From positions 24,810 through 88,809 of the forward strand of contig JAJXUV010000001.1 in NCBI GenBank assembly GCA_021782495.1: a stretch of 64,000 nt of DNA. The letters run 5' to 3'. Origin of the DNA: Pseudomonadota bacterium. GTDB lineage: Bacteria; Pseudomonadota; Gammaproteobacteria; UBA1113. The position numbers were made by a program, and so were the translations under genes. The notes beneath the pieces were generated by a model. It was not told where the DNA came from and made no database searches. It worked only from the letters and a program-made list of their open reading frames with translations. Positions 34,576 through 34,878 of this stretch are shown piece by piece (within the stretch, counting starts at the first letter, position 1; every line of letters begins with the position of its first letter).

Positions 34576-34665
34576 TGGCGGAGAGGGAGGGATTCGAACC
34601 CTCGGTACGGGTTAACGTACACACACTTTCCAGGCGTGCTCCTTAAACCACTCGGACACCTCTCC
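34576..34665 (-). tRNA. tRNA-Ser (anticodon GGA), class II with long variable arm, CCA encoded
   Basis: GGAGAGGTGTCCGAGTGGTTTAAGGAGCACGCCTGGAAAGTGTG..GAGGGTTCGAATCCCTCCCTCTCCGCCA folds into a full cloverleaf; anticodon loop CUGGAAA. Confidence 0.85.
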
Positions 34666-34705
34666 ATTCTTTAATTTTACAAACACACTATCAACGTTTA
34701 ACACC

Positions 34706-34806
34706 GGGAGGGATTGACTCAGCCTTCACTTCGTTCAGGCTTCGCCCTTCGGGCGCACTTCGTGCGTCCAAAATGCTCGCCGCGCTTCGCGCTCTTCGCT
34801 CGCATT
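34706..34806. repeat. Small GC-rich repeat element (family 4) inserted into a second tRNA-Ser copy
   Basis: GACTCAGCCTTCACTTCGTTCAGGCTTCGCCCTTCGGGCGCAC...CTTCGCTCGC; preceded by the tRNA 3' remnant GGGAGGGATT; inverse copy at 21955-22043. Confidence 0.5.
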
Positions 34807-34878
34807 TTGTCGAACCCTCGGTACGGGTTAACGTACACACACTTTCCAGGCGTGCTCCTTAAACCACTCGGACACTTC
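34800..34878 (-). pseudogene. Truncated tandem copy of tRNA-Ser (5' 72 nt retained, T-arm and acceptor 3' end displaced by a repeat insertion)
   Basis: Identical to the intact tRNA from nt 1 to the T-stem except G6A (CACTTCTCC against CACCTCTCC); diverges exactly at TCGAA|CCC. Confidence 0.6.

Follow-up and report, generated by a model that had tools for sequence, protein, structure and literature searches.

A tRNA-Ser(GGA) gene and its split second copy

The 64,000-nucleotide (nt) stretch of DNA analyzed here in full, referred to as the window, contains a single tRNA gene detectable by ARAGORN, a tRNA-Ser(GGA) gene of 90 nt on the minus strand (34576 to 34665; 55.5 bits against Rfam family RF00005). 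Upstream of this working gene lies a second copy of it, split in the T-loop by a small GC-rich sequence that we refer to as element E (34716 to 34810, 95 nt, plus strand, GACTCAGCC...CGCATTTTGT) and that runs antisense to the tRNA. An initial annotation of the locus had recognized the intact gene, a near-identical second copy with one acceptor-stem change and a displaced remnant of that copy, all of which we could confirm. The split copy (34810 to 34881, minus strand) agrees with positions 1 to 72 of the intact gene at 71 of 72 nt, the sole difference being G6->A in the acceptor stem. Base 34810 can be read as either tRNA or E, and the 5' part of the pseudogene is given here as 34811 to 34881 (tRNA positions 1 to 71, minus strand).

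In the sense of the tRNA, the split copy breaks off in the T-loop after GGGTTCGA, is followed by the GC-rich insert and then resumes with AATCCCTCCC, the remnant at 34706 to 34715 (minus strand). This remnant equals tRNA positions 59 to 68 (GGGAGGGATT in antisense) and comprises the remaining T-loop, the T-stem and two acceptor bases; on the plus strand it ends in GGATT, the target of E. The cut had rightly been placed in the T-arm, but the break lies in the T-loop at GGGATT|CGAACCC on the plus strand and not at TCGAA|CCC. Past the remnant the divergence from the tRNA is total, leaving the split copy without the 3' acceptor strand and CCA, and thus without a full cloverleaf, a paired acceptor stem or a whole T-arm. 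Consistently, it scored 17.5 bits against an Rfam tRNA threshold of 29 and was not called as a functional tRNA by ARAGORN. The split copy is dead: besides the interruption of its T-loop and the one change in its acceptor stem, nothing is left of the 3' acceptor strand beyond position 68.

A conserved block upstream of the split copy (34895 to 34923, minus strand; TTGTAA-17-TATCCT, TTGTAAAATTTCGCCAATTCGTTTATCCT) presumably represents the ancestral tRNA-Ser promoter. The same block is present in two related contigs, L022 and L029, and in L022 the tRNA that follows it, where the window has the split copy, begins with GGAGAGG. Since the block is conserved before tRNA-Ser in both relatives, the split copy, rather than the intact one, holds the ancestral tRNA position. 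The two copies are separated by a 40-nt spacer (34666 to 34705, minus strand), whose sole similarity to the ancestral upstream region is a match of 10 nt (TTGTAAAATT) and which contains a weak promoter-like site, TTGATA-17-AAGAAT, at 34694->34666. Decoding relies on the intact gene 40 nt downstream of the split one; its transcription probably starts either at the ancestral promoter, reading through the split copy, or at the weak promoter in the spacer.

Target site and anatomy of element E

The empty counterpart of the insertion site was found in L029, whose RpoD is 90% identical to that of the window. There, the order rpoD, ABC-F gene, upstream block and tRNA-Ser(GGA) is the same, the tRNA-Ser gene apparently exists in a single copy, and its T-loop reads uninterrupted GAGGGTTCGAATCCCTC. 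Comparison with the window places the insertion between GGGATT and CGAACCC on the plus strand (TTCGA|ATCC in tRNA sense), that is, between T-loop positions 58 and 59 of the tRNA. No target duplication was seen between filled and empty sites, with at most 1 nt of ambiguity.

A second copy of E lies in inverted orientation at 21948 to 22043 (96 nt, minus strand), in the intergenic region between a UPF0149-family gene and mnmG (22085 to 23980; gene name taken from the initial annotation), with CATTA as its left flank. Both elements had been noticed before, but comparison with empty sites moved their limits from 34716 to 34806 and 21955 to 22043 to the extents given here; a 35-codon open reading frame (ORF) starting with ATG at 21955 does exist but is merely the element read in frame. 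The two copies are 86% identical over 72 nt (85% column identity in the alignment), and the window contains two occurrences of their 18-nt core where 0.03 would be expected by chance. The second copy shares extended flanks with a copy on contig L006, and the two may form a subfamily. Directly upstream of the second copy, the UPF0149-family ORF (21200 to 21898) encodes a long acidic tail derived from degenerate 9/15-nt GAT/GAA repeats (21662 to 21787).

We searched for further members with a 20-nt core against one genome per species, scanned metagenomes and ran BLAST against plasmid records. In total, the family stands at 12 loci in at least 9 assemblies. The per-species scan recovered two loci in a Legionellales metagenome-assembled genome, three in two other gammaproteobacterial assembled genomes and a shorter variant in a metagenome-assembled betaproteobacterial chromosome; the remaining core matches, in GC-rich genomes, involved the core only and were set aside as chance. 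Three more loci came from the metagenome scan, one from L025, a relative of the window organism, and one from Legionella adelaidensis NCTC12735 "plasmid 13" (L028, NZ_LR134422.1), whereas no further copies turned up in viral contigs, in phage records or through a second plasmid query. Representative genomes contained one or two exact-core matches each, and the 64-kb window two copies of E. Copies that are not associated with tRNA genes sit between housekeeping genes (sucB/lpdA, proC, parB and purB). The element is therefore not single-copy, and the earlier suggestion that it is, or was, mobile is borne out by its presence at unrelated loci in several genomes and by empty and filled sites for two kinds of target. 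A literature search on Legionella mobile repeats of the miniature inverted-repeat transposable element (MITE) type and on T-loop insertions returned nothing describing E, and no Rfam match was obtained, either at gathering thresholds or at an E-value of 1; the family thus appears to be undescribed, though of a known general kind.

Members are 67 to 99 nt long, with three hairpins and an invariant core of 29 nt that is common to beta- and gammaproteobacteria. All share GACTCAGC at one end, followed by a variable hairpin, H1, the invariant core CTTCGCCCTTCGGGCGCACTNNGTGCGTC and a further hairpin, H3 (CAAAATGC...GCATTTTG in the T-loop copy of the window). H1 lies 6 nt from the left end and H3 stops 1 to 2 nt before the right end. 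Both hairpins are maintained with differing sequences among members: H3 keeps its position even where its sequence is wholly different (L012, L016 and L017), and in the long forms its basal stem shows the compensatory pairs GC/GC, GT/AC and AC/GT. No terminal inverted repeats were found in E, the only inverted repeat being the internal H3 hairpin.

The left flank was GGATT in 6 of the 12 copies (5 of 11 tabulated, plus L025), GGATG in two, CGATT in one and GGGTT in one. In all T-loop copies the junctions read TTCGA|CAAA..GA(G/A)TC|AATCC, in one orientation throughout. GGATT is itself found in the conserved T-loop of tRNAs when this is read on the antisense strand (GGATTCGAACC), which makes tRNA genes natural victims of the element. 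A second type of target is represented by the copies in L005, L008, L010 and L015, which follow CCTGGAT(T/G) within a palindromic repeat ending in CTCGCAATGAC; uninterrupted copies of this repeat, found in L006, L007, L015 and L031, read CCTGGATT|GC... at the same point. Since empty sites in both the tRNA and the palindromic-repeat contexts carry GGATT, this pentanucleotide belongs to the target and not to E. On the same evidence we rejected the possibility that GGGAGGGATT is part of the element, which the start of other copies after GGAT(T/G) might have indicated. Moreover, the sequences flanking E follow the local tRNA species, as expected of a target rather than of an element.

In our refined reading, the hit in the window was not a chance landing, as E follows GGATT and T-loops were struck in at least three lineages. 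GGATT occurs at a frequency of 0.00135 per position in the window, or about 173 sites per 64 kb, and among the roughly 10 independent insertion sites T-loops and the palindromic repeat are over-represented against this background, which suggests that a hairpin context helps insertion, in line with what a single-strand mechanism would predict. The palindromic repeat family (...CCTGGATTGC...CTCGCAATGAC) is widespread in these genomes and was seen in the window, L005, L006, L007, L008, L010, L015 and L031. Within the window, one of its ends lies near 20400 (20395 to 20405), and a palindrome with 48-nt arms extends from 20445 to 20592.

Element E at other tRNA genes and the origin of the arrangement

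Both halves of a T-arm flank E not only in the window but also in L016 and L028. L016 comes from a species that is only distantly related and whose tRNA-Ser(GGA) sequence differs, yet E occupies the same T-loop junction in the same orientation. Its intact tRNA-Ser(GGA) gene lies between two insertions of the family (589 to 1028), one in a T-loop and one, a diverged member, after the D-loop, where it follows GGTTTA beside a 28-nt duplicate. The duplicates in L016, of 50 and 28 nt, are perfect and include flanking non-tRNA sequence at 100% identity. In L028 (2860 to 3200, corresponding to ∼100.7 to 101.05 kb), E is located between Arg-type T-arm halves downstream of a tRNA-Ser(GCU)/tRNA-Arg(ACG) pair, and the sequences on either side of it (GAAGGATT | TCGAACCTC) correspond to the T-arm of tRNA-Arg(ACG), whose gene lies at a distance of about 100 nt, rather than to that of tRNA-Ser. 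In L025 the complete 19-nt tRNA 3' end abuts E; this contig ends inside E, showing one side only. Finally, the L022 contig breaks off abruptly after 30 nt of the tRNA, which suggests a duplicated 5' segment in this relative as well.

Wherever E is associated with a tRNA, an intact gene for that tRNA species and a partial duplicate lie alongside, the repeats measuring 72 nt in the window and 50 and 28 nt in L016. No flanking direct repeats were detected at six insertions of E outside tRNA genes, indicating that duplication is not part of the insertion chemistry. An insertion in the T-loop kills the gene, so that a spare is needed, which accounts for the constant company of an intact gene and a duplicate. 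The simplest reading is that only hits in spare tRNA copies survive. Duplication would then have preceded insertion, with a complete tandem pair beforehand. We infer this pair rather than observe it, since no relative with two complete copies was recovered and the copy in the window is 3' truncated. The initial annotation had proposed that the element inactivated one gene of a tandem pair: the dead copy is confirmed, while the complete pair is consistent with the restriction of duplications to tRNA hits. Likewise, the suggested comparison with related strains yielded an uninterrupted tRNA-Ser gene in L029 but not an uninterrupted tandem pair. Inversion between the two inverted copies of E in the window, reasoned through on paper as another origin, was rejected, as it would part the halves of the T-loop.

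We thus favor, with a probability of about 70%, an explanation in which E is a small, non-coding, non-autonomous element that inserted after GGATT into a spare copy of tRNA-Ser. E inserts in one orientation, immediately 3' of GGATT and without target duplication; it landed in the T-loop of the tRNA-Ser(GGA) copy that stands behind the ancestral upstream block, where the presence of a spare copy would have let the hit survive and the dead copy erode thereafter. The locus provides a concrete case, with empty and filled sites, of a bacterial mobile element whose target lies inside the tRNA T-loop. Few sequences in biology are as conserved as this loop, and integrases are usually the only elements regarded as targeting it. 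The insertion explains a class of split tRNA pseudogenes that will escape annotation pipelines or be taken by them for the borders of islands, and the simple rule of GGATT, then E, then no duplication can be checked across genomes and in vitro. With related bacteria showing the same kind of insertion, E represents a recurring hazard for tRNA genes.

Several observations weigh against this explanation or are left aside by it. Two copies, at 21948 to 22043 in the window and in L006, do not follow GGATT, and the folding stability of E is no better than that of shuffled sequences (z = -1 to -1.6 for DNA, either strand), which means that the case for its structure rests on the comparison of members and not on thermodynamics. 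About a dozen copies, retrieved through an exact 18- to 20-nt core, under-sample both the diversity and the copy number of the family. The 40-nt spacer in the window has no identifiable source. In L016, a foreign 34 nt plus GTTCGA lie between the intact gene and E, and both repeat pairs are spaced by exactly 156 nt; a sequence of tandem pair, insertion and deletion leaves these features and the spacer unaccounted for. In L. adelaidensis, a sense-oriented 3' fragment of tRNA-Arg lies next to E, as does a 44-nt unit that is repeated 211 nt away; the whole may be what is left of further tandem Arg genes. L025, a close relative, has E joined to a complete tRNA 3' end beside the MFS gene. It would derive from the arrangement in the window most simply by a 122-nt deletion, which would remove the working gene; this leaves loss of the intact gene in L025 or a more complex history as the two options. 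Together, the spacer, L016, L025 and L. adelaidensis keep alive, as a minority reading, a link between insertion and duplication.

How E moves can be judged from its relation to known systems. Non-autonomous elements derived from the IS200/IS605 family are likewise small and non-coding, lack terminal inverted repeats and target duplication, carry subterminal hairpins at both ends and have a fixed orientation. They insert right 3' of a 4- to 5-nt target (TTAC for IS608, TTGAT for ISDra2), as E does after GGATT, and both the unduplicated 5' target and the subterminal hairpins without terminal inverted repeats are found in E. By analogy, a single-strand HUH/Y1 transposase acting in trans, as on IS200/IS605-derived elements, may move E, a suggestion we make tentatively and at somewhat less than even odds. 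It draws solely on the anatomy of E: Pfam scans revealed no transposase in 46 ORFs of the window (a 118-aa SnoaL-like ORF and 45 of the 57 that reach 120 amino acids [aa] or more) or in ten ORFs flanking other copies. Besides this lack of a cognate transposase in the scanned ORFs, E differs from IS200/IS605 elements in its two copies without target and in its hairpin-to-end distances, which are shorter than those of IS608; its preference for T-loops and for the palindromic repeat, beyond the pentanucleotide, is not a described feature of that family either. Should the enzyme be found, a pentanucleotide-guided single-strand inserter that prefers hairpins would be of mechanistic interest.

Other known systems fit less well. 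Repetitive extragenic palindromic (REP) sequences and bacterial interspersed mosaic elements, together with their REP-associated tyrosine transposases, are also GC-rich intergenic hairpin repeats of proteobacteria and are thought to be moved as single strands by HUH enzymes. However, REPs are palindromes of 20 to 40 nt with a GTAG-type head and occur in hundreds of copies, whereas E has no GTAG-like head and, as far as sampled, few copies per genome (two per 64 kb in the window), and we rejected this identity. Classical MITEs, such as Correia elements, Rickettsia palindromic elements and Coxiella QMITEs, resemble E in being short, dispersed and non-coding and in landing inside genes, including RNA genes, where they create small ORFs or gene extensions; E was nevertheless not assigned to them, as it lacks both the terminal inverted repeats and the target-site duplication that are typical of MITEs.

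Among the alternatives, E could belong to an undescribed class of single-strand mobile elements that recognize the folded tRNA T-arm and similar hairpins rather than GGATT alone, with hits on essential single-copy tRNA genes being coupled to function-preserving partial duplications, either through a mechanism of its own or through an obligatory rescue pathway. We regard this as unlikely; if true, E would drive tRNA gene duplication and pseudogene birth in Legionellales-like bacteria. To a slightly lesser degree still, we can credit insertion and duplication as one event, in which E travels within a slightly larger unit that brings along a piece of the target tRNA, or copies 28 to 72 nt of the target flank, and so regenerates an intact gene, comparable to the restoration of tRNA genes by the integrative elements that enter them. 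Such an event would be in keeping with the perfect partial duplicates that start or end at the insertion point, with the non-tRNA flank and the common 156-nt period of the L016 repeats, and with the foreign DNA alongside E in both L016 and the window. It is at odds with the six non-tRNA insertions without flanking duplication, with the varying side of the duplication (the 5' part in the window, the 3' part in L016) and with the full 3' end joined to E in L025, which lacks the window arrangement. The association is also accounted for by selection in favor of a spare where the gene is essential, with no need for a new mechanism.

We give little credence to the view that the locus is the scar of an integrative element or island targeting tRNA, with E as the island end, the tRNA fragments as attL and attR, and MFS, SnoaL and MarR genes as the cargo that the initial annotation had suspected. 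tRNA genes, and T-loops in particular, are classic targets of integrases, integrative elements of this kind leave partial tRNA copies beside an intact gene, several tRNA-Arg fragments in both orientations lie near E in L. adelaidensis, and the MFS gene came to lie beside the tRNA 3' end through a rearrangement absent from relatives at 82 to 89% identity. Yet no integrase was found among the 46 scanned ORFs, G+C content varies between 0.37 and 0.47 across the locus without a step, and the junctions share at most 1 nt rather than a duplicated crossover core of 6 to 8 nt. The repeated portion, moreover, is the 5' part of the tRNA (positions 1 to 72) and not the 3' end that island integration duplicates; E itself carries no cargo and is also seen amid housekeeping genes, away from any tRNA, and the side with SnoaL, MarR, ABC-F and rpoD is syntenic in L022 and in part in L029. 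The tRNA is thus not supported as an island border, and its neighbors appear to belong to the ordinary chromosome; we consider an island scar very unlikely.

It is highly improbable that E acts as a structured RNA with a function of its own, or as an intron-like intervening sequence, and that the split gene still yields a spliced tRNA or a tRNA-derived small RNA. Its hairpins with compensatory changes, the invariance of the core across beta- and gammaproteobacteria and the recurrence of the same T-loop position in several lineages could be read in this way, but conserved hairpins are equally expected of the ends of a single-strand transposon. Without a 3' acceptor strand no tRNA can be formed, the split copies are truncated differently in each lineage, folding energy does not exceed background, and 95 nt, with no Rfam match, is too small for a self-splicing intron. 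A group I tRNA intron in particular was excluded, as these exceed 200 nt and reside in the anticodon loop, whereas E lies in the T-loop.

Mis-assembly of two strain variants, conceivable for an uncultured source with repeats that invite chimeric joins, has next to no chance of being correct, since an independent metagenome assembly (L001) shows the same architecture with 1 mismatch in 6357 nt, and in two other samples the k=31 contigs stop after exactly 30 nt of the repeated part of the tRNA, as a true repeat predicts. The lone difference between the window and L001, at position 34855, falls inside the split copy, which fits relaxed constraint; being a single event within a repeat, it could also be assembly noise.

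Neighboring genes and other repeats

On the 3' side of the intact tRNA, an MFS transporter ORF (33312 to 34646, plus strand) overlaps the tRNA-Ser gene by 71 nt on the opposite strand, its last 23 codons being antisense to the tRNA. MFS homologues at 82 to 89% identity are 414 to 433 aa long, 11 to 30 aa shorter than the window protein, and lie in unrelated neighborhoods. The junction between MFS gene and tRNA is common to the window and L025. It reveals the breakpoint of a rearrangement, some 5 nt away from the 3' end of the tRNA, that made the MFS gene newly adjacent, but it bears no mark of an island. No orthologous tRNA locus was present on the contigs of the MFS homologues, as this adjacency is lineage specific. 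The MFS side otherwise differs in relatives but consists of thiamine and housekeeping genes. Across the window, the scanned ORFs likewise encode housekeeping functions (cydAB, RNase R, hem, pit/phoU, thiamine genes, MlaA, LptD and glycolysis) or have no Pfam match.

On the other side, the segment from LptD to ABC-F, including rpoD and dnaG, is syntenic with L029. The source of the window is an uncultured gammaproteobacterium, whose RpoD is 86% identical to that of a gammaproteobacterial assembled genome and about 60% identical to those of Legionellales assembled genomes. MarR and SnoaL genes beside ABC-F are shared by the window and L022 and are missing from L029. In the relatives, toxin-antitoxin pairs of the HTH_37/Gp49 and PIN/FitA types are found between ABC-F and the MarR/tRNA-Ser side (L022, 1938 to 2457; L029, 11695 to 12341). 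Locally, the DNA beside the tRNA is a hotspot of small insertions. The SnoaL contig from the L025 sample (L027) ends in a different MITE before reaching the tRNA; the repeat in question (1195 to 1231, ...ACGGTCGCGGCTCGGTTAA) lies just downstream of SnoaL in this related strain.

That repeat is related to two MITE-like repeats of 225 nt in the window (58048 to 58272 and 61266 to 61490), which are 84% alike, have terminal inverted repeats of 46 to 48 nt (TTTAACCGAGCCGCGACC...) and bracket an ORF encoding an 840-aa ankyrin-repeat protein (58284 to 60806, minus strand). Like E, these repeats may differ from strain to strain. Yet another family of small repeats, the third (TTCTGTCATCCCTGCGAAAGCAGGGAT...), is represented by three copies at gene ends, at 41566 to 41623, 55280 to 55337 and 60959 to 60990.

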